Source of the DNA: a virus
Lineage: Duplodnaviria; Heunggongvirae; Uroviricota; Caudoviricetes
Virus record (IMG/VR): IMGVR_UViG_3300029548_000183
Length of the DNA: 64,000 nt
Reading direction: 5' to 3' (one strand)
In this document: in pieces, positions 18,985 through 58,328 of the stretch
Layout of the letters: every line of letters begins with the position of its first letter
Numbering within the stretch: the stretch's first letter is position 1
The notes under the pieces: model-generated
The model's database searches: none
The model's input: the letters and a program-made list of their open reading frames with translations, nothing else
Told to the model about the DNA's origin: nothing
Made by a program: the position numbers and the translations under genes

Positions 18985-20241
18985 TTAAGGAAGACTTTCT
19001 ATCAGCACCTCTTCTTCTATCACTTCTGCTTTTGGATCAATTATTGATTCCTCTATGTACGCATTTTGGGATTCCACTGTTCCCATACCTGCCCAATTTT
19101 GTCTAATGCATTCTATCAACCAACCTGTTACATTTCTAACATTATTTGCATTATTTAACAATTGACCTGCTTCATCTATTATATGTAAATCGTATCCTGC
19201 ACATTCTGCAACAGCTCTTGCATCAGAAACTTTCAAATCATAAGTATCAGATACATATTCAATTATGGCATTGATTCTTTCCATGTCCTTCTCATCATAC
19301 TTGAACATCTTCTGAGCTCGTTCTCTTATTTCTAACATGTTCTGATGATTTCTTGTATTTCTAAATATGGTGAATACATATTTTTTAGGTCTTCCGTATC
19401 CTCCAACTTCTTCATACTCAAAATCTATGTCCGTTAATTCTCTTATCTCTTTTTGTGCAACATCTATTACTTTTTCTCGTAGGGCATAAGTTTGCTTATA
19501 CTTATTTTTGTCCTTTCCTTTTAATTTAGACATTATTTTTTCATAGTCCTTACATCCCTGACTCATTAATATTTTTGCCTCATTGTTTTGAGAGTCATTT
19601 AAATCATAAATACCTAATTTGAATCTTAATTCACATTCATCAATTTCAACTACAACACTATTTTTAAAAGCTAATTTTCTCAATAAAAAAGATTCTTTTC
19701 TAAACATCTCATACATTTTCATTGAATATTTTGACCTCATGGGAATGGTATTTGTGGAACTAAATACAGTAAACCCAATACCCTTTCGCTGAAGATTAGT
19801 AAGAAAAGGCGTAACACTAGGAGCAAATTTTATTTCAACACCTCGTCTTTCTATGTAATGGGCTTTTTCTATCAATACATAAAACCCTAGATTCATTCCC
19901 TCTTCATTTATCCCCTCAAAATAAAAGGTATTATTGTTTGATAAATCAAATACGGCTCTCTTAACCTGACTGTAAATGGAATTTCCCTTCACTCCCAATG
20001 CTTGTTTTAATTCCCTGATTGGAATAAAGACACCAAGCCCTTTATCTGGTGGAACTTCTTCAAATGGATTTATTTTTGCCAATGCTACATTCAATAATTT
20101 CATGCCATTTAAAGTTAAATTATAACTACTTGTAATTAACGGATTGGATTTTACTATCGTGAATGGAGATGGTAATTCATTTTGACCAACCAACTCCATT
20201 GTTACTGTATCATTTTCCACTACTGGTACATCATTTGGCAT
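18985..20241 (-). CDS. plasmid replication initiator, Rep_3 (RepB-like) family
   Basis: N-terminal IVKSNPLITSSYNLTLNGMKLLNVALAKINP matches the Rep_3 signature (vvKsNdLieasY.LtlnEqrlil); iteron array lies upstream. Confidence 0.8.
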   Translation of the reverse strand: MPNDVPVVENDTVTMELVGQNELPSPFTIVKSNPLITSSYNLTLNGMKLLNVALAKINPFEEVPPDKGLGVFIPIRELKQALGVKGNSIYSQVKRAVFDLSNNNTFYFEGINEEGMNLGFYVLIEKAHYIERRGVEIKFAPSVTPFLTNLQRKGIGFTVFSSTNTIPMRSKYSMKMYEMFRKESFLLRKLAFKNSVVVEIDECELRFKLGIYDLNDSQNNEAKILMSQGCKDYEKIMSKLKGKDKNKYKQTYALREKVIDVAQKEIRELTDIDFEYEEVGGYGRPKKYVFTIFRNTRNHQNMLEIRERAQKMFKYDEKDMERINAIIEYVSDTYDLKVSDARAVAECAGYDLHIIDEAGQLLNNANNVRNVTGWLIECIRQNWAGMGTVESQNAYIEESIIDPKAEVIEEEVLIESLP

Positions 20242-22869: not shown

Positions 22870-23637
22870 CTATTTTTCATTTATAAATTCATCAACTAAT
22901 TTGACATAGTCTTTTGCACTTGTACAATTAGGCATGTAATTTAATAACAGTTCTCTTTTGGTTTGCGCTTCCTTGACACTAATGCATCTTCTAATTGTTG
23001 TTTTAAAAAGTTTTGTTCCTATTTGTCCAGCTATTTCTTCCAAAGTTTTTTTAACTTCTCTGGAAAGAATAGTTCGTTTATCATCCATGACAAGAAGTAA
23101 TCCTGCTATATTTAAATTTGGATTAAATCTTTTTTGTGTCTTCTTTATTGAGTCATATAATTGAGCTAATCCCTGTACTCCATATTGATCTGCTGTTATT
23201 GGGATGATAATATCATCAACTGCAACAAGGCAATTAATCAATAATGTATTTAAACTTGGACCAGTATCAATAACTAAATAATCATATCCATTTAAATTGG
23301 AAATGGAATCTCTCAATTTAAAGAAACCATCAACATCTCCATTTAATATTTTGTCAGCATTTGAAAGAAGACTATCAGATGCAATAATATCTCCTGCTTC
23401 TGTATGCTGAATTGCTTCATTAATGTCAACCGGATTTTCTTCTTCAAGAATTACATCATATAAGGTAGTTATACCATCTCCTGTATTAGCTCTGTATGTA
23501 TTAGTGCTGTTGCACTGTGGATCTGCATCTATAAATAAAACCTTATATCCTTTTGTTTGCAATACATTTGCTATTGCTGTGGCTGTGGATGTTTTTCCAA
23601 CTCCACCTTTTTGATTTGCTATAAGTATAGTTCTCAT
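22870..23637 (-). CDS. parA: ParA-family partition ATPase
   Basis: Deviant Walker A motif KGGVGKT in ..IANQKGGVGKTSTATAIA..; typical ParA length. Confidence 0.9.
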   Translation of the reverse strand: MRTILIANQKGGVGKTSTATAIANVLQTKGYKVLFIDADPQCNSTNTYRANTGDGITTLYDVILEEENPVDINEAIQHTEAGDIIASDSLLSNADKILNGDVDGFFKLRDSISNLNGYDYLVIDTGPSLNTLLINCLVAVDDIIIPITADQYGVQGLAQLYDSIKKTQKRFNPNLNIAGLLLVMDDKRTILSREVKKTLEEIAGQIGTKLFKTTIRRCISVKEAQTKRELLLNYMPNCTSAKDYVKLVDEFINEK

Positions 23638-31249: not shown

Positions 31250-32776
31250 ATGAAAGGTATAAAATATTTTATGATAAAAGCAATTATTATTGGTGTTGCA
31301 GTAGTATTATTTTTAATTCTTATTTTAACTAGTTATGTTAAGGCTCCACCAAATATGGCATATGTAATTTCCGGATTAAAGAAACATCCAAAAGTATTAA
31401 TTGGAAGAGCAGGAATTAAGTGGCCAATACTTGAAAGACTTGATAAATTATTATTAGGTCAGATTACAATTGACATTAAGACTGAAGGATACATTCCAAC
31501 AAGAGATTTCATTAACATTCAGGTTGATGCTGTTGCAAAAGTTAAGGTTGGAAATACAGAGGAAATGATGGCTCTTGCAATGAAAAACTTTTTAAATAAG
31601 AATTCTGATGCAATCATTGAAGATTTACAGGATTCACTTCAGGGCAATATGCGTGAGATCATAGGTACTCTTGATCTTAGAAGCATCTGTAATGACAGAA
31701 ATGAATTTGGTAACATGGTGCAGGAATCTGCAACTAAAGACATGGCAAAATTAGGAATTGAAATCATATCATGTAACATTCAGAATGTAAATGATGAAAC
31801 AGACTTGATTGTAAACATGGGTGCTGACAATACTGCTAAAATCAGAAAAGATGCAAGCATTGCAAAAGCAGAAGCAGAGAGAGATGTGGCAATTAAACAG
31901 GCAGAGGCAGATAAGGCTGCCAATGATGCAAAAGTAGCATCAGAACTCGAAATTGCTCAGAAGCAGAATGAATTGGAAATCAAGAAAGCAGAGTTAAAGA
32001 AAGTTGCTGATGCAAAGAAAGCAGAAGCTGATGCGGCATATGAAATTCAGCAGCAGGAACAGAGAAAATCAATTGAAATTGCTTCATCAAATGCAGACAT
32101 TGCAAAACAGGAAAGAGAAGCAGAAAAGAAAAAACAGGAAGTATTGGTTAAGGAACAGGCTCTTGCAGCTGAAGTCAAGAAGACAGCAGAGGCAGAAAAA
32201 TTCAGAAGACAGCAGGAAGCAGAAGCTGAATTATTTGAAAGACAAAAAAATGCTGATGCACAGAAAGCAGAAGCAGAAGCTAAAAAATATGCTTTGGAAC
32301 AGGAAGCTGAAGGTATTAAGGCAAAAGGACAGGCAGAAGCTGAGGCAATCAAGGCAAAGGCTCTTGCAGAAGCAGAAGGTCTTCAGAAGAAAGCAGAAGC
32401 AATGCAGAAGTATGGTGAAGCAGCAATACTTGAAATGTACTTTAAATCATTGCCTGAAGCTATTAAAAATGCAGCTGAACCACTTGGAAATGTTGAATCA
32501 ATTACAATGTATGGTAATGGCAACAATGAACAGATGGTAAGTTCAATTATGAACACAGTAACGCAGGTTAATGATGGTATTAAGGGTTCAACAGGACTTG
32601 ACATGAAATCTGTACTTGCAGGTGTTCTTGGAACTAAGGCTCTTTCATCAGTTGCATCTGATAATAATGAAGATGTTGATGCTGATGATCAGAAGAAAGA
32701 AGAAAAAACATCAAAAGAAAATGCTAAATATACAGAAGTTGTAGAAACTGTTAAAAAAGAAAAAACAGAAGAATAA
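31250..32776 (+). CDS. flotillin-like SPFH protein (FloT/YqiK-like)
   Basis: N-terminal TM, SPFH core, then a long Ala/Glu/Lys/Gln coiled coil with EA repeats. The ORF-track entries embedded at 32004-32604 are frame artefacts. Confidence 0.8.
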   Translation: MKGIKYFMIKAIIIGVAVVLFLILILTSYVKAPPNMAYVISGLKKHPKVLIGRAGIKWPILERLDKLLLGQITIDIKTEGYIPTRDFINIQVDAVAKVKVGNTEEMMALAMKNFLNKNSDAIIEDLQDSLQGNMREIIGTLDLRSICNDRNEFGNMVQESATKDMAKLGIEIISCNIQNVNDETDLIVNMGADNTAKIRKDASIAKAEAERDVAIKQAEADKAANDAKVASELEIAQKQNELEIKKAELKKVADAKKAEADAAYEIQQQEQRKSIEIASSNADIAKQEREAEKKKQEVLVKEQALAAEVKKTAEAEKFRRQQEAEAELFERQKNADAQKAEAEAKKYALEQEAEGIKAKGQAEAEAIKAKALAEAEGLQKKAEAMQKYGEAAILEMYFKSLPEAIKNAAEPLGNVESITMYGNGNNEQMVSSIMNTVTQVNDGIKGSTGLDMKSVLAGVLGTKALSSVASDNNEDVDADDQKKEEKTSKENAKYTEVVETVKKEKTEE

Positions 32777-33575: not shown

Positions 33576-34070
33576 ATGAAGAAAATTTTTTCAAATTATG
33601 AAATCAGAGAAAAAGAAGTTTATGTGGTTAAGGACAAAATGGAAGGTCCTGTACTAAAAAAAGAAGCAATGAAAGAGGCTCAGGAGCAGGAACTTGATCT
33701 TGTTCAGATTGCAGTCAAGGATGGAGTTCCAATCTGCAAATATCTTGACTATAACAAGTATGTGTATGATTTAAAGAAAAAAGAAAAGGGAAACAAGCAT
33801 AAAAAACAGGAAGTAAAGGAAATAAAGATTACTGCAAACACAGAAGAACATGACATAAAAATTAAGGAAAACAAAATAAGAAAAATGCTTGAAAAAGGCT
33901 GTGAAATTAAAATAACAATGATGTTTCGTGGCAGGGAAAAGGCTAACAAGAAATTTTATGTTCCTAAACTTGAATCAATGGTTGAAGACTTAATGGATGT
34001 TGCAGTTGTGTCAAAAAAAATAAAAATTACTGATTACAATGCATTTGTGATTCTTAAATCAAACAGGTAA
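33576..34070 (+). CDS. infC: translation initiation factor IF-3 homolog
   Basis: By-eye alignment to bacterial IF3 over its full length: ..IREKEVYVV..ELDLVQIAVKDGVPICKYLDYNKYVY..QEVKEIKITANTEEHDIKIKENKIRKMLEKGCEIKITMMFRGRE.. Confidence 0.8.
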   Translation: MKKIFSNYEIREKEVYVVKDKMEGPVLKKEAMKEAQEQELDLVQIAVKDGVPICKYLDYNKYVYDLKKKEKGNKHKKQEVKEIKITANTEEHDIKIKENKIRKMLEKGCEIKITMMFRGREKANKKFYVPKLESMVEDLMDVAVVSKKIKITDYNAFVILKSNR

Positions 34071-34951: not shown

Positions 34952-35560
34952 ATGGGATACATGATATTCAATGTGTATGCTAAACACCATCAAAAATGGA
35001 TGGATAATTTTACATATACGCTTAAGTACACAAAAAAAGGGTTCTACTTCGTTTTCAAGGTAAAAAAAGAAGACATAAAAAAGATTAAAAGAGAGATAAG
35101 AAAACATCATTTGAGATATGCAATGTATGAGGAAAAATGGGAAAGATCAAGTTCCTACAGAAAGAAGTTTTTTAAGGCAAATAAAGGTCCATACAGATGC
35201 CGTTATTGTAACCAAATTCTAAAGAAGGAATACCTTGTGGTTGACCATATTTATCCAATTGCAAAAGGAAAGTATAACAAAGAAAGCAGAAAATTACTAA
35301 ATCTAAGAGGAATTGAAAATGTTAATGATACAAGAAATCTGGCAGCAAGTTGTTTTAAATGTAATGAAAAAAAGGGAGACAAACTTGGGCTATGGTACAT
35401 AAGGGGACTACTTGGACAATATGACTGGTATTGGAAAACATTAAAAATTTTAAAAATTTTGATTATTATTGTAATTATTTTAAGCCTGATTTTCATTTTT
35501 CTGCATTTTTCCAACCTTAATTTCCACTTGCAAAAAATTATAAAAAATCCATTACGCTAA
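34952..35560 (+). CDS. HNH endonuclease with C-terminal transmembrane anchor
   Basis: RBS GGAGGTGA 7 nt before ATG 34952. HNH core CRYCNQ..VVDHIYPIAKGG-like..N..NL..SCFKCNEKKGDK. C-terminus ILKILIIIVIILSLIFIFL is hydrophobic. Confidence 0.7.
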   Translation: MGYMIFNVYAKHHQKWMDNFTYTLKYTKKGFYFVFKVKKEDIKKIKREIRKHHLRYAMYEEKWERSSSYRKKFFKANKGPYRCRYCNQILKKEYLVVDHIYPIAKGKYNKESRKLLNLRGIENVNDTRNLAASCFKCNEKKGDKLGLWYIRGLLGQYDWYWKTLKILKILIIIVIILSLIFIFLHFSNLNFHLQKIIKNPLR

Positions 35561-35596
35561 TATCTTTTTATGATTTTTTAATTTTCATAAAAAAAC

Positions 35597-35612
35597 AACC
35601 ATATTAGATATG
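35597..35612 (+). promoter_or_regulatory. conserved promoter-proximal motif (AACCATATTAGATATG variant) upstream of the cas12a-like gene
   Basis: Same cassette motif as elsewhere. Confidence 0.45.
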
Positions 35613-35641
35613 AAAACCAAAATGATAAAAGGAGATAAAAA

Positions 35642-38600
35642 ATGGATAATTTTAAAAATTTTACGGATTTAAAACAGAAACAGATTACAATCTGTCAGAA
35701 ACTCATTCCTGTTGGAATGACAAGAAAAAACATTGACATTTTTAATGCAATGGAAAGTGATGAATATGTCTCTGAAAATAAGGGTGAAATCAGAAAGTTA
35801 ATTAAGCTATTGGCCAGAGAAAAAATGGAAGAAGGAATAAGCAAGGCAAAATCAAATTTAAGTTTTACAAAACTTCTTGGCTTGATGAATGAGTACAATG
35901 AAACTGATTCTGAATATAAGATGGAAGTCCTTGAAAGACTCTTTGATGAAAGAGTAAGACTTGCCAACATTATTGCATCAGAATTTAAGACAAAATTTTC
36001 CTGTGCTGACACAATAACTACTCTTCTTCCTGAATATGTTAATGAACATTTCAATGGAAGTGAAAAGGAAGAATACCTAAACCTTCTTGAAGAGGTTAAG
36101 AAACATCAGGCAATGTTTAACAGGTTTGAGTCAAACATTGACAACATGTTTTCACCAATGCTAAAAAAAGGCTCTGTTGTATACAGAATGTTGGTTGAAA
36201 ATACTCAGATATTTCTTAATAACAAATCAAAAACTGATAAGGAAGATTTTAAGAAAATCATTGATTTGTCAGAACTTGATGATGAAACAAAAAGCATCAT
36301 CATCAAAAGATGCATTGACATTGATGAAGAGTCATATGCAGAAGTCCTAATTCAGGAAGACATTGACGGATACAACTATTGCATTGGAATGCTTAATAGT
36401 GAAAGCAAGATGTTTTGTGATAAAAACAAATTAAACTACAAGGACTTTGAACTTAAAAACTTATATAAGGCAATGCTCTGTGAAAAGACTGCATTCTTTG
36501 AAAAAATTGATTCATTTAAAAATGATGAGCAGATTGTGGATTCCTACAATTCATTAATGTCAAACATTAATGCAAAAAACATTGCAAAAACATATGAAAA
36601 GTGCATGGGACACATGGATGGAATGCACATAAAACCATCAGTTCTTTCATTTTATTCTAATGTTGTGTATGGCAAATGGAATGTTGTAAGAAACTGCATA
36701 AGAGCCTACTGTCAGGATGAAATGAATTCAATAAAAAAGAATAAAAAGAGTCTTGATGATTATTATGAAGCTTTCATTAAGAAAGGCATAACAATTAACC
36801 AGATAAGTAACATTGTATCATCATATGCTGAAGAACTTGAGCTAAAGGTCTTTGAGAAAGATTTATCAGATACAATATACAGTTATCTTTTACATAAATA
36901 TGCATGTGTGGAAGAGGAAAAAACTCCATTGAAGTCTGATGAAAGCAAAAATGCAGAAACAATCAGGGTTGAACTTGAACATTGCATTCAGGCATTAAGG
37001 TTACTAAAAATTTATGACACTGAAAATGACAATCTCAATGAAGAAATGAAAACATTGATTGATGAAATCATTGATGAATTGTCACCTGCCATATTATTGT
37101 TCAACATGACAAGAAACTACATAACTGCAAAACCTACTCCAAAGAAAAAACTTGCATTGACATTCAATACTGCAAGCTTTGGAGGAGGGTGGAGTGAAAG
37201 TGTTGAAAGTTCAAAGAGAGTGAGTTTACTAAAGGATGATGAAGGAAACAAGTACCTGATGATATACAACATAACAGGATGTAAGGCTAACAATGTTTCC
37301 ATGGTATCAGTTACGGAAAAAGTAAAGGCGAATTTACTTAATGACAAGAAGAACATTGACTGTTACAGAAAACTTGTATACAGTGCGGTTCCTGATGCAT
37401 TAAAGGACATATCAAGACTTTTCATTAACAAACTTGAAGATGAAGAAATGATTAAACGCTACAAGAATAAGGAACACAAGGAAAACAGGGAATTTCTTAA
37501 TGAACTGATAAGTGTCTTAAAGAAAAAGATTAATGAGCATCCTACATGGTCAAGATATGGCTTTAAGTTTAGGGATGAATACGATTCCTTTGATGATTTT
37601 TGCGATGACATTAATAATCAGGGCTACTATGCAAAATGGAAATACATTCCAAAGACAGTAATTGATGAGTATGTCGAAAATGGATGCATTTATCTGTTTA
37701 AGATTTACAACAATGATTATAGTGCATACAAAAAGGCAGGTTCAAAGGTTAAAACCCATACAAGATACCTTGATTACTTATTTAGTGATGAAAATGAAAA
37801 AACAGATCTCATCAAATTACTTGGAGGTCTTGAAGTATTCTATAGAGAGCCTCAGATTAAGAATCCTTATGTACATAAAAAAGGTAGCATTCTTGTAAAC
37901 AAGAAATACAAGGATGGAACAATCATTGGTAATGAATATAAGGAGTTATTTAAAAAGGCACAGACAACAAAACTTGACAATGTGTATACAAGAGCGTGTC
38001 CATATGACATCATAAAGGACAAGAGATATACAATGGAACAGTTTGAAGTTCATTTTCCAATATTGATTGGTAATGACAATAATCCTGAAAATTTCATTGA
38101 AATGAGTAAACACTTTGTTGAAAATGCAAAGCACACGGTTGTTGTTGGTAGAAACAGGGACAATCTTTTATATGTGTCTGTTTATGAGGAAAATGCCTTA
38201 ATTCATTCAAAATCACTTAATAAAGTAAATGGAACTAATTACAAGGATAAGTTATTCATAATTGAAGATGCAAAGAAAAACAATGCAAGAAACTGGAAAA
38301 CAATAGGCTCAAATGATGCATTGCTGACAGGATACATTTCAGCAGTAATAAAAGATATCACAGACCTTGTTCTTAAATACAATGCAGCTCTCGTCATTGA
38401 AATGGGAAGTAACTTGGCAAAAGACAGAAATCTCTTGCCAAACAGAGTATATACAAAGTTTAAGGAAGCACTACTTCACAAATTGGAATTTCTAATTGAT
38501 TCAGAAAAGGCTGATGATGAACCGGGTGGATTATTACATCCTTATCATTTGACTGAAATTAATAAGAAAAATCCAAAGAGAAGTATTGATACTCCACACA

Positions 38601-39181
38601 ATGGAATAGTGTTACTGGTACCTTCATTTTATTGTGGTTTAACTGATCCGGAATCAAATCTTTGTAATCTTACTTATGCAAGAACAAAAAAGGAAAAGGA
38701 AGAGGTTCTTAAAAAAATTAAGGGATTTAAGTACAATAAGGAAGAAAGTATTTTTGAATTTGTTTATGACATGTCATTATTCAATCCTAACATGAAAGGA
38801 AAGTTTACTTGTACAAGCAATGGAGACAGACTGGTTGATACAGAAAATGATAAGGTGGTAATGGACTTAACACATTATATTGAAGATAAGTTAAAATCAC
38901 TTGGAATCGAGTATAAGTCAGGAAATGAAATTAATCTCATTTCTGATGATGGGTTAACAAATGAAACTTTATTTAACTGTATTAGATACACATTACAGAT
39001 GAACAATGGTAATTTCTTCATTTCTCCTGTTACGGGATTTTGCTATACTTGTGATGGTTGTTCAAACATTTCTTATAATAGAAATTTGTACAACAGATCA
39101 AAACTGGTTAAGGAAAACATAAAGAGTGGAAAGAAACTTAAGTTCATGACAATCAAGGACATTTACAAACCTCAGTCTTAA
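35642..39181 (+). CDS. cas12a: Cas12a (Cpf1)-family protein; RuvC and Nuc catalytic residues appear substituted (predicted nuclease-deficient)
   Basis: Cas12a hallmark blocks found by eye: QKLIPVGMTRKNI (WED-I), RNYITAKPTPKKKLALTFNTASFGGGW, GCIYLFKIYNNDYSAYKK..THTRYLDYLFSDENEKTDLI..LEVFYREPQ, YDIIKDKRYTMEQFEVHFPI, and the RuvC-II block YNAALVIEMG with Glu retained. The RuvC-I position reads TVVVGRNRDNLLYV where IGIDRGERNL is expected. The Nuc block reads TLQMNNGN (Arg replaced by Asn). No DADANGAY-like RuvC-III motif is present. Confidence 0.85.
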   Translation: MDNFKNFTDLKQKQITICQKLIPVGMTRKNIDIFNAMESDEYVSENKGEIRKLIKLLAREKMEEGISKAKSNLSFTKLLGLMNEYNETDSEYKMEVLERLFDERVRLANIIASEFKTKFSCADTITTLLPEYVNEHFNGSEKEEYLNLLEEVKKHQAMFNRFESNIDNMFSPMLKKGSVVYRMLVENTQIFLNNKSKTDKEDFKKIIDLSELDDETKSIIIKRCIDIDEESYAEVLIQEDIDGYNYCIGMLNSESKMFCDKNKLNYKDFELKNLYKAMLCEKTAFFEKIDSFKNDEQIVDSYNSLMSNINAKNIAKTYEKCMGHMDGMHIKPSVLSFYSNVVYGKWNVVRNCIRAYCQDEMNSIKKNKKSLDDYYEAFIKKGITINQISNIVSSYAEELELKVFEKDLSDTIYSYLLHKYACVEEEKTPLKSDESKNAETIRVELEHCIQALRLLKIYDTENDNLNEEMKTLIDEIIDELSPAILLFNMTRNYITAKPTPKKKLALTFNTASFGGGWSESVESSKRVSLLKDDEGNKYLMIYNITGCKANNVSMVSVTEKVKANLLNDKKNIDCYRKLVYSAVPDALKDISRLFINKLEDEEMIKRYKNKEHKENREFLNELISVLKKKINEHPTWSRYGFKFRDEYDSFDDFCDDINNQGYYAKWKYIPKTVIDEYVENGCIYLFKIYNNDYSAYKKAGSKVKTHTRYLDYLFSDENEKTDLIKLLGGLEVFYREPQIKNPYVHKKGSILVNKKYKDGTIIGNEYKELFKKAQTTKLDNVYTRACPYDIIKDKRYTMEQFEVHFPILIGNDNNPENFIEMSKHFVENAKHTVVVGRNRDNLLYVSVYEENALIHSKSLNKVNGTNYKDKLFIIEDAKKNNARNWKTIGSNDALLTGYISAVIKDITDLVLKYNAALVIEMGSNLAKDRNLLPNRVYTKFKEALLHKLEFLIDSEKADDEPGGLLHPYHLTEINKKNPKRSIDTPHNGIVLLVPSFYCGLTDPESNLCNLTYARTKKEKEEVLKKIKGFKYNKEESIFEFVYDMSLFNPNMKGKFTCTSNGDRLVDTENDKVVMDLTHYIEDKLKSLGIEYKSGNEINLISDDGLTNETLFNCIRYTLQMNNGNFFISPVTGFCYTCDGCSNISYNRNLYNRSKLVKENIKSGKKLKFMTIKDIYKPQS

Positions 39182-39287
39182 TTTTAACAAAGTCAAAATT
39201 ATAAAAGAAAAATGAGTGAATATACCCAAAATCATTGTGATTATGTACTTTTTTCATAAAGAAAATTGTGCATAATCACAAGATAAG

Positions 39288-39502
39288 AGTTAAAGAAAAG
39301 CAAATGTCTGCTGATATGCAGATTAGATTGTGCCACTCATTCCATCAGAAGTTAAAAGAAGACGAAATGTCTACCATCATGTAGATCATAACAAGTAGCA
39401 TATCCCAATATACAGTAAAAGGAAGTAAAATGTCTGCCATTATGTAGATATGGTGTGATTACTCTGGATTTCAATGAGAAAAAATTCTGCTGTTGATGAA
39501 AT
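39288..39502 (+). CRISPR. mini CRISPR array: 3 Cas12a-type repeats plus a degenerate terminal repeat, 3 spacers of 26-27 nt
   Basis: Period of 63 nt. Repeats of ~36 nt end in AATGTCTGCTGATATGCAGAT, AATGTCTACCATCATGTAGAT and AATGTCTGCCATTATGTAGAT (Cas12a-like UCUAC-loop-GUAGAU hairpin). A 4th copy at 39470-39502 is degenerate. Confidence 0.75.
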
Positions 39503-39628
39503 ATATTCCGTAAGCTTGTAAAATCATGAAAAGAAAAAATTATTCAAAAACTAAATAGAGTCAGTTAATCTGGCTCTTTTCTTTTTGTAGAATGCAAAAA
39601 TTGAGATAACAAACAAAATGGTATAATA

Positions 39629-39726
39629 AAAAATAAAAAAAGTAATGTCTGCTGTTATGCAGATTCAGTGTGTGTAATAGGACAAACTATATTAAAAGAA
39701 AACAAAATGTCTGCTATTGCGTAGAT
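39629..39726 (+). CRISPR. second mini-array: 2 repeats, 1 spacer (26 nt), with its own promoter-like and terminator sequences
   Basis: Repeats end GTAATGTCTGCTGTTATGCAGAT and AAAATGTCTGCTATTGCGTAGAT. TTGAGA-N15-TATAAT lies upstream (39601-39627). A hairpin plus T-run lies downstream (39740-39766). A separate terminator at 39558-39596 divides it from array 1. Confidence 0.65.
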
Positions 39727-39833
39727 ATAATAAGTAAAAATTGGAGTCAAAAGTAGACTCCTTTTTTTGTACAAAAATAAACAAGGAAACAACCATATTA
39801 AGTATAAGAAAACAATGAAAGAAGGAAGAAAAG

Positions 39834-40691
39834 ATGCTTAACTTAAATTCTTTATACAATGGGGATTGCCTTGAAGTAATGAATCAGATTGATGACAAAT
39901 CAATTGACTTAATATGTACTGACCTGCCTTATGGACAAACAGCAAGAAATAAATGGGATACTGTCATTCCCTTTTGTGATTATGTGAAAATAAAAGGAAA
40001 TACATACTATGAAAATGATGTATTTAAAATTAGTGGTGTGCTTAATAAGAATATGGAATACACAAAAAAATGGTTTGATGAAAACAAAAAGACAGGACTA
40101 TGGACTCATTATAAACGTATCATTAAGGACAATGGAGCAATTGTTTTGTTTGCAAATGGTATGTTTACGGCTGACTTAATGAAAAGCAATGAGAAAATGT
40201 GGAGGTATAATCTTGTATGGCAAAAAACGCAGCCAACAGGTCATTTAAATGCAAAAAGAATGCCATTACGTTCACATGAAGACATATGTGTTTTCTACAA
40301 AAAACTTCCAACATATAATCCACAAAAAACAACAGGACATAAAAGAAAAGTATCAACAGCAAAAAACAAAATGAACTGTAAGAAAACATTAAATTATGGT
40401 GAATATAATCTGACATCATATGATAGCACGGAAAGATACCCAACCTCAGTATGGACTTTTTCAAAGGACATACAAAAATCAGCAATACATCCGACACAAA
40501 AACCAGTTGCCTTAATTGAGAAAATAATAAAAACATATTCAAATGAAAATGAAATTGTTCTTGATTCCTGTGCCGGAAGCATGACAACTACGATTGCCAG
40601 CATTAACACACACAGGCAGTACATATGCATTGAAAAAGACAAGGATATTTTTGAATCTGGAAAGGAAAGAGTACAAAAAGCAAAAAAATAA
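39834..40691 (+). CDS. DNA methyltransferase (N6-adenine/N4-cytosine, beta class), orphan
   Basis: Motif IV DLICTDLPYG precedes motif I DSCAGSMTT; no adjacent restriction endonuclease. Confidence 0.8.
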   Translation: MLNLNSLYNGDCLEVMNQIDDKSIDLICTDLPYGQTARNKWDTVIPFCDYVKIKGNTYYENDVFKISGVLNKNMEYTKKWFDENKKTGLWTHYKRIIKDNGAIVLFANGMFTADLMKSNEKMWRYNLVWQKTQPTGHLNAKRMPLRSHEDICVFYKKLPTYNPQKTTGHKRKVSTAKNKMNCKKTLNYGEYNLTSYDSTERYPTSVWTFSKDIQKSAIHPTQKPVALIEKIIKTYSNENEIVLDSCAGSMTTTIASINTHRQYICIEKDKDIFESGKERVQKAKK

Positions 40692-41616: not shown

Positions 41617-42215
41617 ACCCACTTGCAAAAATCTGGGTATTTTGGAATTTGGTATCATAGTTCTTGTCAAGAGGACAAAACAAACATAATGATGTCATAA
41701 ATCTTTCTCTTACAAAATGAGGAATCATTGTATAGACAAGCCACAATAAAGAAGTCTTATCCCCCTAGTGACTCACAACTGTGGTGTTGGTTCATCCCAA
41801 CTGATTCCACTTGGCAATGATTTTTGCCAAAATAATACTTCTGTCGTAAGAAGTACTCCTTATTTATTGATCATTTCTCCATGGTTAGAAGGCTGTGGAG
41901 AAGAATGCTCTACAAAAAAGTTTGTATCAGGAAAAATCAACATTGTTTTCCTGTTGCAATAAATACAAGAGGAATATTTTTTTTCGAAATGTGTTCATAT
42001 ACTACATTTTTTGTAGCTTGCGTTTGCAACTGTTGTACCTCTTGGGCAGTTGCATCATAGAATCATTGCCTTGGGCATGCCATATGTTGAAATATAATAT
42101 CCTATCCCCCCATTTTTTTTCAATGTATGGTGCCGGCTCATCCCGGCTGATTCTACTTGGCAAGATGAATTGCCAATTTTTTTTAATCTTTTTCACTCAC
42201 ATCCTTTGGGGTGTG
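41617..42215 (+). ncRNA. candidate large structured non-coding RNA immediately upstream of the tRNA (paralog of 6191-6620)
   Basis: ~600 nt without an ORF. Contains two copies of a module: a 5-bp stem with a YTCATC loop (GTTGG..CCAAC / GCCGG..CCGGC, compensatory changes), then TGATTCYACTTGGCAA-N6-TTGCCAA plus a T-run. Shares further blocks with 6191-6620. Confidence 0.3.
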
Positions 42216-42504: not shown

Positions 42505-43419
42505 ATGTTTTTATTTTTCATTGTGATTGCATTGGGAATTGCAGTTGTTTCAACATGTGTAAAGATTGTGCCACAGGCTCATTCTTACATAATTGAAAGA
42601 TTGGGAGTGTATCAACAGACATGGCCAGTTGGCATACATTTCAAAATTCCATTTTTGGACAGAGTGGCAAGAAAGGTTAATTTAAAGGAGCAGGTTGCAG
42701 ATTTTGACCCACAGCCTGTTATTACAAGAGATAATGTAACAATGCAAATTGATACAATTATTTTTTATCAGATTACGGATCCAAAACTTTATGCTTATGG
42801 CGTTGAAAATCCAATTTTGGCAATTAAGTCATTGACTGCAACAACACTCAGAAACATAGTAGGCGACTTGGAACTTGATGAAACTCTTACTTCAAGAGAA
42901 ACAATCAATGCCAAGATGCGCACAGAACTTGACGTAGCGACTGATCCTTGGGGAATAAAGGTCAACAGGGTAGAACTTAAAAACATCATTCCACCAAGAG
43001 ACATTCAGGAAGCAATGGAAAAGCAGATGAGAGCTGAACGAGAAAAACGTGAACAAATTCTTAGAGCAGAAGGTGAAAAGAAATCCGCAGTTCTCATTGC
43101 AGAAGGAAAGAAGGAAGCTGCAATTCTTAATGCAGAAGCAGATAATAAGGCTGCTGTTCTTAAAGCTGATGCTGAAAAGAAAAAACGAATTCTTGAAGCT
43201 GAAGGTGAGGCACAGGCCATTCTTAGTGTTCAGAAGGCAACGGCAGATGGAATTAAGGTGATTAAGGAAGCAGGAGCAGATGATGCAGTTCTTACACTTA
43301 AGAGTTTAGAAGCTTTTGTGGCTGCAGCTGATGGTCAGGCTACAAAGATTATCATTCCATCAGAAATCCAGGGAATTGCCGGTTCAGTAAAGGCTTTGGC
43401 AGAAACAATCAAGGATTAA
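42505..43419 (+). CDS. SPFH-domain protein (stomatin/QmcA-like)
   Basis: N-terminal TM. IVPQAHSYIIERLGVYQQTWPVGIHFKIPFLDRV matches the stomatin-type SPFH core. No clear RBS before ATG 42505, so the start is uncertain. Confidence 0.8.
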   Translation: MFLFFIVIALGIAVVSTCVKIVPQAHSYIIERLGVYQQTWPVGIHFKIPFLDRVARKVNLKEQVADFDPQPVITRDNVTMQIDTIIFYQITDPKLYAYGVENPILAIKSLTATTLRNIVGDLELDETLTSRETINAKMRTELDVATDPWGIKVNRVELKNIIPPRDIQEAMEKQMRAEREKREQILRAEGEKKSAVLIAEGKKEAAILNAEADNKAAVLKADAEKKKRILEAEGEAQAILSVQKATADGIKVIKEAGADDAVLTLKSLEAFVAAADGQATKIIIPSEIQGIAGSVKALAETIKD

Positions 43420-43585: not shown

Positions 43586-44002
43586 ATGAAATTAGATAAT
43601 AATAATCATTCGGTATTCATGCTCCATTATCACCTTATTATGTGCATTAAATATCGTAATAAAGTTATAGATGATAAAATCTCAAACCGTCTCAAAGAAA
43701 TATTTGAGAAGATAGCTCCTTCCTATAACATCACGTTAGAGGAATGGAATCACGACATAGACCATGTACATATACTATTTCGAGGACAGCCCAATACGGA
43801 AATAAGTAAATTTATCAATGCTTATAAATCTGCAAGCAGTAGACTTATCAAAAAAGAATATCCTCAGATACGTAAATATCTCTGGAAAGAGATGTTCTGG
43901 TCACAGAGCTTTTGTCTGTTAACCACGGGCGGTACTACGGTAGATATTATTAAGCAATATATCCAATCTCAAGGTAAGAAAGATGGCAAACAGAGCAATT
44001 AA
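43586..44002 (+). CDS. tnpA: IS200/IS605 family transposase TnpA (HUH Y1)
   Basis: HYHLIMC..YRNKV.. and ..HDIDHVHILFRGQP.. (HuH motif), ..ASSRLIKKEYP..LWKEMFWSQSFCLLTTGG.. over 138 aa. Confidence 0.85.
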   Translation: MKLDNNNHSVFMLHYHLIMCIKYRNKVIDDKISNRLKEIFEKIAPSYNITLEEWNHDIDHVHILFRGQPNTEISKFINAYKSASSRLIKKEYPQIRKYLWKEMFWSQSFCLLTTGGTTVDIIKQYIQSQGKKDGKQSN

Positions 44003-45128
44003 GTACAGAGCATATCCTACAACTAAACAATCTGTCATGTTTGCTAAGACCTTTGGCTGTTGTCGTAAGGTCTATAATCTCATGCTTTCAGATAAGATTG
44101 AAGGCTACAAGGCTACTGGTGAGTTTCCTACTGTTACACCTGCTAAGTATAAGAACGATTATCCTTATCTTAGAGAAGTAGACAGCCTTGCTCTTGCCAA
44201 TAAGCAGATGGACTTACAGGAGGCTTTTCGTAATACATTTAGTAAATCTCGTAAGAAGAAAAACGGTTTTCCTAAATTCAAGTCTGCCAAACATAGTCGT
44301 AAGTCCTATACTACAAACAATCAAAAAGGCACAGTTGCTATCATAGATAACAAATGTATTAAGCTCCCTAAGATTGGAAAGGTAAAAGCTGTTATCCATC
44401 GTGTGCCTGACGATAGTTGGACAATTAAATCGGCTACCGTATCACAGGAATCTGACGGCAAATATTATATCTCCGTACTCTTTGAGTTTGAGAATACCGT
44501 AAATCCTTATGTAGCCGATAAAACTAATGCCATCGGGTTAGATTATGCTTCCGACGGCTTATACGTAGATAGTAATGGCAATACAGGTACTAATCATAAG
44601 TATTATCGTGAGAGCCACAACAAGCTTGCTAAGGCTCAGCGTAAGCTATCACGTATGCAAGGCTCTAAGAAACACGAGGTTAAGTCCAATAATTATATAA
44701 AGCAACTCCGTAAAGTGAATAAGATACATAGGCATATCGCTAATCAGCGTTTGGATAACCTGCATAAGATATCTACTGAGATAGCCAATCAGTATGATGT
44801 TGTTTGTGTAGAATCCCTAAATATGAAAGTTATGTCAAATAAAGGTTTTGGTAATGGCAAAGCTACTCTTGATAACGGATATGGCATGCTCCTGTCTATG
44901 CTTGAATACAAGTTATCTGACAGGAATAAGTATCTCATCAAGGTAGACAAGTGGTTCCCGTCATCACAGATATGTCATTGTTGTGGTATGCTACATCCTG
45001 AAATGAAGAATTTAGCCATCCGTAAAATGACATGTAATTGTGGTCTTACAATAAGCCGTGACCAGAACGCTGCTATCAATATCCTAAAGGAAGGATTACG
45101 ACTACTGACTGAAGTAGCCCGAAACTAA
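43983..45128 (+). CDS. tnpB: TnpB (IS605 OrfB) RuvC-like RNA-guided nuclease family protein
   Basis: C-terminal zinc finger ICHCCGM..CNCG, followed by ISRDQNAAINILKEG (RuvC-III). Start overlaps the end of tnpA. Confidence 0.85.
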   Translation: MANRAIKYRAYPTTKQSVMFAKTFGCCRKVYNLMLSDKIEGYKATGEFPTVTPAKYKNDYPYLREVDSLALANKQMDLQEAFRNTFSKSRKKKNGFPKFKSAKHSRKSYTTNNQKGTVAIIDNKCIKLPKIGKVKAVIHRVPDDSWTIKSATVSQESDGKYYISVLFEFENTVNPYVADKTNAIGLDYASDGLYVDSNGNTGTNHKYYRESHNKLAKAQRKLSRMQGSKKHEVKSNNYIKQLRKVNKIHRHIANQRLDNLHKISTEIANQYDVVCVESLNMKVMSNKGFGNGKATLDNGYGMLLSMLEYKLSDRNKYLIKVDKWFPSSQICHCCGMLHPEMKNLAIRKMTCNCGLTISRDQNAAINILKEGLRLLTEVARN

Positions 45129-49448: not shown

Positions 49449-49570
49449 CATGCAAAAAACATAAAAAGTCAAATAAAATACGTCAAAATTTAGAATAAAT
49501 AGTTAAAAATTTCAGGTATATCCGGCACCCATTTTGTTTTTAGACAAACAAAATGAAAGGTGGAAACGAT

Positions 49571-51895
49571 ATGCAGACAAGTATATTTGATTTTATGATG
49601 CCGGAAATCTCAATAGACAAGCCAATAAGACTTATTGAACTGTTTGGTGGATATGGCTCACAAGCTATGGCACTAAAAAGAATAGGAGCAAATGTTGAAC
49701 ATTGGAAAATGTCTGAATGGGAAATAGATGCAGACAAGTCATACAACAGTGTTCATAATAACAAGGATTTTAAAAATTATGCAAGGGGAAAGAGCAGAGA
49801 ACAACTTGCAAGAAAATTATATAAAAGGGGCATATCAAATGATGGCAGCACTCCAATGCCTTATTCAAAAATAAGAAAAATGAGTTTGGAACAGTTACAG
49901 AAAACATATAATTCATTCTGCCAGAATCAGAATTTGGGAAGCATAACAAACATAAAAGGAAAACAACTAAACATAGTGAATACCAATAAGTATGAATACA
50001 TAATGACATATTCCTTTCCCTGCACTGATTTATCATTGTCAGGAAAGCAAAAAGGAATGAAAAAGGGAAGTGGAACAAGAAGCGGACTGCTATGGGAAGT
50101 TGAAAGAATTCTCACTGAATTAAGAGACGAGGGAAGGGAACTTCCTCAAATATTATTCATGGAAAATGTACCGCAAGTCATTGGAGCAAAGAACATTGAA
50201 GATTTCAGGGATTGGGAAGATTTCTTAAAAAGTCTTGGATACTCAAATCATCTGCAAATATTAAATGCAAAAAATTATGGAGTTGCTCAAAATAGAGAAA
50301 GATGTTTCATGCTTAGTTTTTTAGGGGAATATAACTATCATTTTCCGGAACCGATAAAATTGGACAAGAGATTAAAGGACTATCTTGAAAAAGATGTTGA
50401 TGAAAAATATTACATAAAAAATGAAAAAGCAAAAAGGTTAATAGATGAATTAATAAAAAGTAGAACATTTAAACCTGATTCCATAATGACATATGACATT
50501 CCTCAAACTGTTCTTGTAAGAAAACATGAAATAGATAATAAAAAATTATGTGAATTTTTAAGAAAACATAAGGCAAATTCAAATAAAACAAATGTTGAAA
50601 TTGCAGAAAATTTAAATCTGCCTGTAACACAGGTTGAGCACTGGTTTAGAATGGATAACAGCTTTGCAGTTCCTGATGCAAACGTATGGATTAATCTAAA
50701 AAAATGTCTAAATATACAGTCTGATGAATGGGATGAAAAAATCATGACATTTGAGGAGAAATTATCAGTTTTTGAAAAAGGAAACAGATGTTATGGTGCC
50801 AATGGAATAGCACCTACAATTACAAGTTCAAGTGCTGATGAAAAAATCATAGAACCTAAGTGTCTGAATAGTAAAGGTGGCAGAAATGGAGTAGAAGGAC
50901 TTCAACCAAAAGTTATAGGCTCAATTTATACTGAAAATTCAGAAATGTTTGGCACAAAATTAATGCCAATAGCACATACATTAAAGGCATCAAAAAATGA
51001 TGTGGCAATTGTTGAAAAAATTAAGGAATCTGAACCACAAATTGAAGTTCTTGGTAATTACATGAAGAGTAACCATGATGCAACAAGAGTGGTATCACCT
51101 GAAGGCATTGCACCAACGGTAAGAGAATGCCATGGTTCAGTTACAGCCGTTGCACTTGAGGATGAGAGTAATGATGCACAGATTAACATACTTGGACTTC
51201 TGGACATAAAAGGAAAAGATCAGGTTAGACGTGTATATGGTGTTGATGGAATTTCACCTACACTTAACACAATGCAAGGAGGAAACAAACAACCAAAAAT
51301 AGTTGAAAGTGAAGTGGTATCAGCAGCAATAAGAGGAAGATATGATGAGAATGGTAAGGTGGAACAGCATTTGGAACAGGGAAGCAGGGAGTACTCAAAC
51401 ACAATAACAACTGTAACAAAGGATAATATGGTAATAGAAAAGAATAACAAGCCTGAAAGGGTCGGTCAAATTTCAAGTGATGGAAGTCAATGTGGAATGG
51501 TGTATTCTGATGATGGACTCTTCCCTACACTTAGTGCGGGATGTCATGGATATGCAAATCCACATGTATATACACAATATAGAATAAGAAAACTGACACC
51601 TGTTGAATGTGGAAGACTAATGGGTGTCAATATGGATGACATCATAAGAATGATAATTGCAGACCACAGGAAAGCTGATGAATATTTACAATACATGAAA
51701 GACAATGGCATTGAATATGAAGGAAAAAAACAAATGGATGAACTTTCAAAAATACAGGGAATGTCAAATTCCAAATTATACAAGCAGTATGGAAATTCAA
51801 TTGTGGTTGATGTGATGTGTGCAATGTTTAGAAACTTAAACATCAAGGGTATTAAAAATTGGAATAATTATTGTAAAAATCAGGCAAAAAAATAA
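49571..51895 (+). CDS. DNA (cytosine-5) methyltransferase with long C-terminal extension, orphan
   Basis: Motif I ELFGGYGS, IV FPCTDLS, VI FMENVPQV, VIII AQNRERCF. About 500 aa follow motif VIII. RBS AAAGGTGGAAA before ATG 49571. Confidence 0.85.
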   Translation: MQTSIFDFMMPEISIDKPIRLIELFGGYGSQAMALKRIGANVEHWKMSEWEIDADKSYNSVHNNKDFKNYARGKSREQLARKLYKRGISNDGSTPMPYSKIRKMSLEQLQKTYNSFCQNQNLGSITNIKGKQLNIVNTNKYEYIMTYSFPCTDLSLSGKQKGMKKGSGTRSGLLWEVERILTELRDEGRELPQILFMENVPQVIGAKNIEDFRDWEDFLKSLGYSNHLQILNAKNYGVAQNRERCFMLSFLGEYNYHFPEPIKLDKRLKDYLEKDVDEKYYIKNEKAKRLIDELIKSRTFKPDSIMTYDIPQTVLVRKHEIDNKKLCEFLRKHKANSNKTNVEIAENLNLPVTQVEHWFRMDNSFAVPDANVWINLKKCLNIQSDEWDEKIMTFEEKLSVFEKGNRCYGANGIAPTITSSSADEKIIEPKCLNSKGGRNGVEGLQPKVIGSIYTENSEMFGTKLMPIAHTLKASKNDVAIVEKIKESEPQIEVLGNYMKSNHDATRVVSPEGIAPTVRECHGSVTAVALEDESNDAQINILGLLDIKGKDQVRRVYGVDGISPTLNTMQGGNKQPKIVESEVVSAAIRGRYDENGKVEQHLEQGSREYSNTITTVTKDNMVIEKNNKPERVGQISSDGSQCGMVYSDDGLFPTLSAGCHGYANPHVYTQYRIRKLTPVECGRLMGVNMDDIIRMIIADHRKADEYLQYMKDNGIEYEGKKQMDELSKIQGMSNSKLYKQYGNSIVVDVMCAMFRNLNIKGIKNWNNYCKNQAKK

Positions 51896-57311: not shown

Positions 57312-58328
57312 TTATGTATTATTTAAGTTTTTTTGCTTTTTTTCAAGTTCTTTTATAGTGTATTCCAATTCTCTTTTTTCTTTTATTAAGACATCAACCT
57401 TTTTTATTAATTTATTCTTTTCTCTTTTTGTGTTTCTAAGTCTATTTTTAAGAGTATGAATTTCTGCATTTTTTCTTTTTAACTCTTCATAATCAAAGGG
57501 AATTTGTCTGAGTCCAAAATAATTTCGCACATCCTTTTCTATTACTTTAAAACCACCATTGTATAATTTCTTTTCCATTGTTTTTATAATGTCTGACTTT
57601 TGATCAGTGTCGATAAAGAGAGACTTTATTAAATAAAAAGCAATGTAATCAGCAAGTTCAATACCTGCATTCTCTGTATGCTTTGAAATGGTTACAAAAC
57701 TTCGAATTCTTTTTCTAATTTCTAAATTATTTATGTTTAAAATTCCTTTGTTGTTAATTAAAGTTTTACAGTAATTGTGATACATCTTTATGTCAGCAGA
57801 ATTAATTGTTCTATGTTCATCTCGTGATTCATATACAATATCTCCAATTGCATTTTGATTTTTTAAAAAATGTGCATAATTCTCAATGATGTTTTGTATT
57901 GCAATATTATATATATCATCTTTTTGTTCTTTTGAATAATACTCTTTATATTTATTTATGTCTATGATACATCCCAAAATAGTAATATCAAGAGTACTAA
58001 TGGTTTTTCTTATTTGCTCTGTAACACCATCAATTTTATCTTTTATTAAATTTGGTTCAATTGATTGAAAAAATTTATATTCATTTCTTTTTATGTAACT
58101 ATAAAGTAACTTATTTTTTCTATTATTTTTAATTGTTGCTAATTCAGTACAATGCAATATGGTGTCATGAGAATTAATGTAATTTTCAGTCCATAATATA
58201 GTTTTGGCTTTATGTATTTGCTCTTTTAAAAAGTCAATGTCCTTTTCTCTTATTGCAAAACCAGCAACAAGAATTATTTGTTTTTCAGTGTTTATGCTTT
58301 CATCAAGATAAAGTTTGTATTCTTTCAA
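57312..58328 (-). CDS. DUF3800-like protein with C-terminal coiled coil (TTG start)
   Basis: RBS AAAGGAGG 6 nt before TTG. N-terminus KEYKLYLDESINTEKQIILVAGFAI matches the DUF3800 start. Confidence 0.45.
   Translation of the reverse strand: MKEYKLYLDESINTEKQIILVAGFAIREKDIDFLKEQIHKAKTILWTENYINSHDTILHCTELATIKNNRKNKLLYSYIKRNEYKFFQSIEPNLIKDKIDGVTEQIRKTISTLDITILGCIIDINKYKEYYSKEQKDDIYNIAIQNIIENYAHFLKNQNAIGDIVYESRDEHRTINSADIKMYHNYCKTLINNKGILNINNLEIRKRIRSFVTISKHTENAGIELADYIAFYLIKSLFIDTDQKSDIIKTMEKKLYNGGFKVIEKDVRNYFGLRQIPFDYEELKRKNAEIHTLKNRLRNTKREKNKLIKKVDVLIKEKRELEYTIKELEKKQKNLNNT

Follow-up and report, generated by a model that had tools for sequence, protein, structure and literature searches.

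A putatively nuclease-dead Cas12a-family effector with its own CRISPR arrays on a gut plasmid, predicted to silence targets without cleavage

Type V CRISPR effectors do not all cut their targets. Cas12m (type V-M) and Cas12c (type V-C) interfere by binding rather than cutting, and V-M systems, which are enriched on plasmids, repress essential plasmid genes (PMC11656645, PMC11013384, bioRxiv 10.1101/2021.12.06.471469). Binding-based interference has been shown for these two effectors and is predicted for V-O, V-P and Cas12b3 (PMC12669027; PMC11656645; PMC11013384), and the inactivated type V forms described in the literature comprise V-C, V-M, V-O, V-P, V-K and Cas12b3. The legend to Extended Data Fig. 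7 of PMC12669027 presents Cas12b3 as an inactivated V-B variant with RuvC substitutions, carried with a mini-array on an Actinomyces conjugative plasmid. Plasmid type IV-A3 systems are nuclease-free and lack an adaptation module; they acquire spacers in trans and silence transcription (bioRxiv 10.1101/2023.06.23.546257; PMC11656645). We found no inactivated clade of Cas12a in the literature searched, which included a 2023 terascale CRISPR survey, a 2024 review of mobile-element CRISPR systems and a 2025 classification, and whose coverage was incomplete. Here we describe a candidate for such a clade through one of its members, a 1179-residue Cas12a-family protein encoded on the plus strand at positions 35642-39181 of IMG/VR record IMGVR_UViG_3300029548_000183. 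The whole 64,000-nucleotide stretch analysed (GC ~30%) is referred to as the window. The protein has lost most of its nuclease active site, retains the residues for processing CRISPR RNA (crRNA), and is followed by two CRISPR arrays. With moderate confidence, we read it as a natural dCas12a (catalytically dead Cas12a) with self-processed guides and a silencing action that leaves its targets uncut.

The effector is a member of the Cas12a family, because curated family models, comparisons with chains in the Protein Data Bank (PDB) and fold matches all agree. Residues 4-1132 match TIGR04330 (cas_Cpf1, the NCBI equivalog model for Cas12a/Cpf1) with 437.3 bits, against a cut-off of 300 bits, and the Pfam domains REC1, REC2, PI, RuvC_1 and NUC follow in the Cas12a order. 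All 14 PADLOC matches are to Cas12a models (Cas12a E 6.5e-158), and the Cas12m model is not among them. By HMMER, the nearest solved structures are ReChb (8qwd, E 9e-82), then Lb2Cas12a and LbCas12a. An AlphaFold2 model built from a shallow alignment (mean predicted local distance difference test score, pLDDT, 73.8; predicted template-modelling score 0.49) superposes over its whole length on LbCas12a, ReChb, FnCas12a and AsCas12a in Foldseek, with template-modelling (TM) scores of 0.55-0.59; the LbCas12a match has an E-value of 4e-52 and a TM score of 0.58. An initial annotation of this DNA, made from the sequence alone, had recognized the 1179-residue protein by its Cas12a features, and the profile-model and predicted-structure comparisons that it proposed bear out both the family and the catalytic losses described below. 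It had left the subtype unplaced; the curated models now give type V-A, of which the system appears to be a divergent and uniformly inactivated branch.

Compared with canonical Cas12a (LbCas12a, FnCas12a and AsCas12a), the window protein shares the hidden Markov model family, the fold and the domain order, and the system shares the single-crRNA hairpin handle, the ribonuclease (RNase) triad and a 5'-TTTV protospacer flank. It differs in that the RuvC-I Asp, the RuvC-III Asp, an adjacent Glu and the Nuc-domain Arg are replaced, as is one Lys of the WED domain that contacts the protospacer-adjacent motif (PAM). The WED-III segment also carries a clade-specific insertion, the C-terminus is shorter, and the locus lacks cas4-cas1-cas2 in cis and lies on plasmids or mobile elements.

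The catalytic differences were placed with MAFFT alignments of the effector, its relatives and 120 canonical Cas12a sequences, and with HMMER alignments to PDB Cas12a chains. A first alignment combined database relatives with canonical Cas12a taken from genome contigs. Input to the large alignment was the best 150 of 1577 hits from an exhaustive profile search of 1.84 billion representative proteins, and identity-based clustering of 165 sequences put the window protein in a group of 10, here called the clade. The HMMER alignment sets the RuvC-I motif IGIDRGER opposite TVVVGRNRD in the effector. Gly836 (codon 38147-38149) stands at the RuvC-I Asp position, which is Asp in 120/120 canonical sequences, a set defined by Asp in that column, and Gly or Thr in 10/10 clade members. 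The Glu of the GER motif, present in 120/120 canonical sequences, is Arg839. In the Nuc domain, LQMRNS has become LQMNNG, with Asn1121 (codon 39002-39004) at a position that is Arg in 116/120 canonical sequences and Asn, Leu, Tyr or Phe in the clade. At the RuvC-III Asp of DADANGAY (Asp in 114/120 canonical sequences) the window protein has Asn1142 (codon 39065-39067), as does its relative P0001, and the other eight members have Glu. Only the RuvC-II Glu is kept (Glu920, codon 38399-38401), and it is invariant across all 165 aligned sequences. The RuvC D-E-D triad is thus G836-E920-N1142 in the window protein and is not intact.

These alignments settle what the initial annotation had judged by eye. 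It had placed a Gly near nucleotide 38147 at RuvC-I and an Asn near 39003 in the Nuc domain, and both substitutions are confirmed, the former by HMMER and MAFFT alike. It had also reported that no RuvC-III Asp precedes the C-terminus; the Asp is indeed missing, although the position itself is present as Asn1142 and is Glu in most relatives. An Asp at RuvC-I and RuvC-III and an Arg in the Nuc domain would have spoken against its interpretation, and the residues found were G836, N1142 and N1121. We found no RuvC-III motif hidden by a frameshift in any reading frame. The secondary structure predicted by AlphaFold2 appears to agree with the aligned equivalences: a strand at 831-836 ends at G836, a strand at 915-921 holds E920, and the last long helix (1140-1162) begins at residues 1140-1142, near N1142.

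All three pre-crRNA RNase residues are kept within the WED-III segment (37874-38017, plus strand): H745 (37874-37876), K754 (37901-37903) and K792 (38015-38017). Their retention had been suggested by the initial annotation and is upheld by the alignment. The clade-specific insertion lies between residues of this triad, in a segment of low AlphaFold2 confidence. The bridge-helix Trp885 and the PI-domain Lys588 are also conserved in the window protein, the latter in 8/10 clade members.

Loss of the nuclease site is shared across related proteins and is not peculiar to the window. A word-indexed search returned five close relatives (99, 55, 54, 43 and 43% identity), with the next hit at ~26%, and GTDB species genomes, when scanned, contributed Eubacterium album LFL-14, whose protein matches P0004 exactly or almost so, and, at 35-36% identity, two metagenome-assembled genomes (MAGs) of Lachnospiraceae. 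The initial annotation had asked whether dead-RuvC orthologs form a clade, and the group of 10 is uniformly so, with the RuvC-I Asp and the Nuc Arg absent from every member. A second dead group of 17 representatives (P0008, P0012, P0014, P0018, P0020, P0023, P0024, P0033, P0037, P0041, P0055, P0064, P0080, P0090, P0100, P0109 and P0151) has Ile, Val, Thr or Ala in place of the RuvC-I Asp and lacks the Nuc Arg and the entire DADANG segment. Both groups have an invariant His in the RNase triad; the complete triad is retained throughout the first clade, and in the second both Lys positions are basic except in P0090. Both groups come from elements of gut or rumen Clostridia. In the first clade, full-length open reading frames (ORFs; ~1140-1180 aa) persist across 35-55% identity, and the identical 1179-residue protein occurs on nine contigs of up to 143 kb from different human-gut samples, a pattern of conservation that argues for maintained function and against decay. 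No close homologue was found in PLSDB or INPHARED.

Separately, 18 scattered sequences within the canonical group (P0016, P0017, P0028, P0029, P0036, P0072, P0088, P0103, P0119, P0127, P0134, P0136-P0139, P0144, P0153 and P0154) have Asn, Ser, Thr, Cys, His or Ile at RuvC-I, and in most of them the Asp at RuvC-III and the Nuc Arg are unchanged. Inactivation may have arisen independently and more recently in these sequences.

The effector gene is followed on the same strand by two arrays of Cas12a-type repeats, 35-36 nt long. Array 1 (39289-39502) has repeats at 39289-39323, 39351-39386 and 39415-39449 and spacers at 39324-39350, 39387-39414 and 39450-39476, and closes with a degenerate terminal repeat at ~39477-39502. 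An intrinsic terminator follows, with an 8-bp stem at 39557-39577 and then a T-run (annotated to 39586). Array 2 (39630-39753) has repeats at 39630-39664 and 39691-39726 around one spacer (39665-39690), and its trailing pseudo-spacer (39727-39753) runs into a second intrinsic terminator (39743-39761, annotated to 39770). The two short arrays reported by the initial annotation therefore stand, with five repeats, and the degenerate fourth repeat of array 1 and the terminators are added to them. Its emphasis on mini-arrays as a defining trait does not hold, since relatives carry 5 to 15 repeats (4+6 in L001, 5+1 in L007, 12+3 in E. album, 11 and 7 in the MAGs, 6 in L010 and 5 in the sister-clade locus L011) and a second sample shows the array of the window itself in a longer form. 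Arrays are present at every clade locus examined whose sequence runs past the effector gene.

The repeats appear to be maintained as RNA hairpins. All window repeats end in AATGTCT(A/G)C-N6-G(T/C)AGAT, the Cas12a handle, with the stem variants TCTGC/GCAGA, TCTAC/GTAGA and TCTGC/GTAGA; relatives add CCTAC/GTAGG and CCTGC/GCAGG. At two positions of the stem both partners have changed in a compensatory way, and one variant is a G-U intermediate, which is the pattern expected of selection on an RNA hairpin. The array of L011 (1131-5275), in the second dead clade, has the handle GCTTA-loop-TAAGC.

Upstream of array 1 lies a leader (39235-39288, plus strand), in which direct reading shows an 11-bp perfect inverted repeat, TTGTGATTATG...CATAATCACAA, with arms 25 nt apart within 39235-39281, and a -10-like element, TGnCATAAT. 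The inverted repeat is conserved at 10/11 positions in both leaders of L001, a 54%-identical relative (13550-13600 and 13955-14005), and could be a site for a regulator or of the integration-host-factor type. A consensus promoter scan gave nothing above background, and the -10-like element was identified by eye only.

Two relatives show further array arrangements. In L001 (13860-14010), a copy of the leader, together with the final ~40 nt of the effector gene, lies downstream of array A and heads a second array, B, whose repeat differs slightly; leader duplication seems to be the way in which new arrays arise. In L007 (9758-9804), some 200 nt before the start of the dead cas12a, a lone repeat with a 28-nt 'spacer' precedes a terminator-like hairpin. 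This solitary repeat recalls the crRNA-like autoregulatory RNAs of other CRISPR loci (bioRxiv 10.1101/2023.03.03.530964).

Spacer content differs between otherwise matching loci. In L022, which encodes the identical effector in another sample, array 1 has two extra units at the leader end with perfect copies of repeat 1, unlike the older repeats, which have diverged, and we read this as a trace of polarised spacer acquisition. Six-frame phmmer searches with four query sets found no V-A Cas4, Cas1 or Cas2 in the window or in 11 clade loci, while the same queries detected the module in canonical loci used as a positive control (E 1e-29 to 1e-168). The absence of cas1, cas2 and cas4 from the window, noted in the initial annotation, is therefore well founded.

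Two spacers have perfect protospacers, both in chromosomal genes and both flanked by 5'-TTTV. The newest L022 spacer matches 26/26 positions, with 5' TTTA, in a 217-kb metagenome contig with a GC content of 30.6%, the same as the element. The protospacer (L025, 5181-5206) lies inside a gene for a 531-aa membrane protein in a chromosomal surface-polysaccharide locus, among genes for a flippase, UDP-galactopyranose mutase, an acyltransferase, VanZ and dTDP-glucose dehydratase. The first spacer beside the E. album effector, which is 43% identical to that of the window, matches 26/26 positions, with 5' TTTC, inside the Shedu gene sduA (PADLOC E 1.8e-111; L027, 10422-10447, and also L026, 3001-3026). 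The exact targeted SduA protein occurs on 331 contigs; in five long ones (66-249 kb), sduA sits ~5 kb downstream of rpsL-rpsG-fusA-tuf, in a chromosomal island (L027-L031, 10001-21062) with Shedu, DUF4747, ToxN and Wadjet JetA/B/C. TTTV occurs at 2-3% of positions in the target loci, and both sites would carry it by chance with a probability of ~6.5e-4 (n = 2), so the two protospacers support a 5'-TTTV PAM. Both lie mid-gene, and in both the spacer corresponds to the antisense strand, so that the crRNA would pair with the coding strand and with the mRNA.

Overall, ~63 other spacers had no target in the collections searched. No spacer matched elsewhere in the window or within +/-10 kb of related loci, which would have indicated self-targeting. 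Twenty spacers had no target in PLSDB and INPHARED; a second set of 45 (43 new) had no match in PLSDB and one credible match in INPHARED, and 22-nt matches to E. coli phages were dismissed as chance (E = 2). Exact scans of IMG/VR with five spacers returned no match. We also considered convergent targeting, on the basis of 10-11-mers shared between window spacer 2 and spacers of two other loci, and rejected it because shuffled spacers give equal or longer words.

These features can be joined in a mechanism in which guides are made but targets are not cut. The arrays would be transcribed from their own leaders, where promoters are presumed, and would end at the intrinsic terminators, which are recognizable by pattern. 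The effector would cut the pre-crRNA upstream of the UCU(A/G)C-loop-G(U/C)AGAU hairpin through H745, K754 and K792, as the retained residues and compensatory stem changes suggest, and the crRNA-protein complex would find DNA beside a 5'-TTTV PAM, in keeping with the two perfect protospacers and the retained PI-domain Lys. Because the RuvC-I Asp, RuvC-III Asp and Nuc Arg are gone, an R-loop would form without cleavage; the residue losses are directly visible, and loss of activity is what they predict. The bound complex would then block transcription or replication, as in Cas12m, Cas12c and plasmid type IV-A3 systems. Host-supplied Cas1-Cas2, perhaps with Cas4, would add spacers at the leader end, as suggested by the array polymorphism and the lack of adaptation genes in cis; reliance on the host for spacer uptake has been reported for plasmid type IV-A3 (bioRxiv 10.1101/2023.06.23.546257). 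The initial annotation had proposed a binding or silencing mode, and this remains the best inference for a protein with a disrupted RuvC/Nuc site and an intact crRNA-processing site. A non-cutting effector would tolerate spacers against the chromosome, which fits the two chromosomal targets found. A plausible use, resting on these two spacers, is the non-lethal silencing of host or competitor functions to the benefit of the element.

Several observations weigh against this interpretation. Both the loss of cleavage and the retention of DNA binding are deduced from residues, and the structural model has only moderate confidence at its pLDDT of 73.8. One PAM-contacting WED Lys, present in 97/120 canonical sequences, is Val throughout the clade, so PAM reading may differ. 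With the RuvC-II Glu in all clade members and Glu at RuvC-III in 8/10, there may be room for residual or altered chemistry in the relatives. At both mid-gene protospacers the PAM is on the template strand, which with engineered dCas12a is the weaker orientation for blocking elongation; we treat the shared orientation of the two spacers as unexplained (n = 2). Targets were found for only 2 of ~65 spacers in the collections searched, and for none of the window's own four genuine spacers. Lastly, the difference between L022 and the window could reflect a deletion in the window's lineage, although even then the extra L022 units must once have been acquired.

Like engineered dCas12a (ddCpf1, used for CRISPR interference, CRISPRi), the window protein lacks the RuvC-I and RuvC-III carboxylates and is predicted to keep crRNA processing, but it is of natural origin, is naturally maintained and has lost the Nuc Arg as well. 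In engineered dCas12a, retained crRNA processing is what makes multiplexed guide arrays possible. Cas12m and Cas12c belong to separate Cas12 lineages and differ in size, Cas12m being compact whereas the window protein has 1179 residues, and Cas12c depends on a trans-activating crRNA (tracrRNA). The closest evolutionary parallel is Cas12b3, also an inactivated, plasmid-borne branch of a normally active subtype with a short array; it derives from V-B, which needs a tracrRNA, and comes from another phylum. Type IV-A3 is likewise plasmid-borne, nuclease-free and without an adaptation module, but is a class 1 multi-subunit system with a DinG helicase and unrelated sequence. Cas12k, of the V-K CRISPR-associated transposons, resembles the window effector in having a RuvC inactivated by point substitutions, short arrays and no adaptation genes, but is embedded in Tn7-like transposons with tnsB/tnsC/tniQ. 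None of these families turned up among genes called up to 10 kb on either side of the effector (in L021/L022 and relatives), and we rejected a transposon-associated function for lack of Tn7 genes. Cas12a2 and Cas12a3, which act in RNA-triggered abortive infection, use an active RuvC for collateral cleavage, whereas the window RuvC triad is disrupted, and the best family and PDB matches of the effector are to DNA-targeting Cas12a. By analogy, then, the window system is predicted to work like Cas12m, Cas12c and type IV-A3 while standing outside those families.

An alternative that we think unlikely is that the protein is an anti-CRISPR decoy, a dead Cas12a that binds or processes the V-A crRNAs of the host, or occupies its targets, and so shields the plasmid. 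The canonical V-A repeat handle, the intact RNase site and the plasmid setting are all in keeping with it, and a comparable idea has been raised for phage-encoded RuvC-dead Cas9 (PMC11656645, PMC10910872). The effector, however, has arrays of its own, whose spacers are varied and change over time and have protospacers flanked by a PAM, and a pure decoy would have no need of these. Arrays also accompany the gene in every clade locus examined that extends past it.

The complementarity of both matched spacers to mRNA raises a further possibility, which we consider quite improbable: that the crRNA pairs with transcripts and blocks translation or marks them. RNA-targeting relatives with Cas12a-type crRNAs exist (Cas12a2, PMC12669027; Cas12a3, PMC13594972), but those known depend on a working RuvC, and in the window protein this is lost. 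Two spacers would share this orientation by chance with a probability of 0.25, and conservation of the PI-domain Lys588 argues for the reading of a PAM in double-stranded DNA. The TTTV flank could be explained by acquisition alone, yet it also fits DNA targeting.

The gene immediately upstream suggests another route to cleavage. It encodes an HNH endonuclease of 202 aa (34952-35560, plus strand; Pfam HNH/HNH_5) with a C-terminal hydrophobic helix, as the initial annotation had described, and ends 81 nt before the effector start on the same strand, with CxxC...DH...N...CxxC motifs that look intact. The dead effector could be a targeting module for which this membrane-anchored enzyme cuts in trans, and CRISPR effectors have gained HNH modules on repeated occasions (PMC10910872). 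All contigs of the window's own lineage (L020-L024) keep the two genes together, but we found no HNH gene beside the other clade members examined or the second-clade protein P0008 (P0002, P0003, P0004, P0005, P0008 and L012-L014). The adjacency is thus confined to one lineage, in answer to the initial annotation's question of whether orthologs always adjoin HNH, and the dead state is far older than it. The HNH protein matches no PADLOC family, and its predicted membrane tether would be an odd place for a DNA-targeting partner. Because it occurs only in the window's own lineage, we do not count the gene in the system, of which it is probably not a part, and a role as nuclease partner, suggested by the initial annotation, seems very doubtful.

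It is less probable still that the RuvC site is rewired rather than dead, with another acidic residue substituting so that the protein still nicks or cleaves. The invariant RuvC-II Glu and the Glu at RuvC-III in 8/10 clade members would leave such chemistry a starting point, and catalytic rewiring is documented in the TnpB/Fanzor lineage (bioRxiv 10.64898/2026.06.23.733943). The window protein, however, is without two of the three carboxylates, the adjacent Glu and the Nuc Arg, and no acidic residue near RuvC-I is conserved in the clade (D840 in the window protein, Glu in P0001 and none in P0003-P0005). Finally, a decaying remnant without function, which the lost catalytic residues, degenerate window repeats and short arrays might suggest, is hardly tenable given the intact ORFs over 35-55% identity with non-catalytic motifs and RNase triad conserved, the identical copies in many samples, the compensatory changes that preserve the repeat stem and the polymorphic spacer content at the leader end.

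The surrounding genes bear on the carrier of this natural dCas12a candidate. The window encodes a Rep3 initiator (18985-20241, minus strand) and ParA (22870-23637, minus strand), which support the plasmid context given in the initial annotation, together with a tyrosine recombinase, DUF3854, several orphan DNA methyltransferases, a HicAB pair and a SpaA/thioester adhesin. Around the relatives are relaxase-like, SSB, SNF2, VirB4-like, NlpC/P60 and sortase/surface-protein genes. This gene context supports a plasmid or conjugative element, and we take the window locus to be carried by a large plasmid with Rep3 and ParA, the host of which is a low-GC, Clostridia-like gut bacterium.

Other cargo of the window is recorded here as separate observations. 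The only transposon near the effector is an IS200/IS605 unit (43586-45128), 4 kb downstream of the arrays, with TnpA (Y1 transposase) and TnpB and strong PADLOC matches to Cas12f/Cas12u; two related 49-nt elements (41782-41830 and 42128-42176) lie just upstream of it. An IF3-like translation-factor gene (33576-34070) and three genes of the SPFH/flotillin family (31250-32776, 42505-43419 and 7412-8344) are unusual cargo near a CRISPR locus. Three DNA methyltransferase genes (39834-40691, N6/N4; 49553-51895, C5; 52017-53054, N6/N4-like), with no restriction enzyme identified alongside, probably serve the plasmid as anti-restriction cargo. A gene 18 kb from the locus (57312-58445, minus strand) encodes a protein with a DUF3800 domain (weak Pfam match), and DUF3800 proteins have been reported alongside a Cas12a2 sub-branch (PMC10910872). 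A joint PADLOC scan of 75 window ORFs also gave one match to 'Csx1 (found elsewhere)' at E 1e-33, which did not recur when 15 of these ORFs were scanned one by one.

Cas12a ranks among the two genome-editing effectors in widest use, and laboratory dCas12a is a standard tool for multiplex CRISPRi. If the window protein and its clade are natural equivalents of the latter, type V-A would join the subtypes that independently switched from cutting to binding (V-C, V-M, V-K and Cas12b3), which would lend weight to the idea that RNA-guided silencing of a non-lethal kind is favoured again and again by mobile elements. The clade would also offer a set of proteins optimised by selection for tight binding without cleavage that still process arrays. 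Polymorphism at the leader end without cas1/cas2 in cis makes these loci a testable case of class 2 spacer acquisition in trans. More tentatively, mobile elements of gut Clostridia may use self-processing dCas12a as adaptive CRISPRi against the host chromosome. Because the effector cannot cut, such elements could hold spacers against chromosomal genes, obtained through host adaptation proteins, and silencing of Shedu, a nuclease directed against plasmids and phages, and of surface-polysaccharide genes might ease establishment or transfer. Were the two chromosomal targets representative, plasmids would be turning adaptive CRISPRi on the defence and surface genes of their hosts, a new layer of plasmid-host conflict in the human gut, and if the counter-defence reading is true, this would be an RNA-guided, heritable and reprogrammable plasmid counter-defence.

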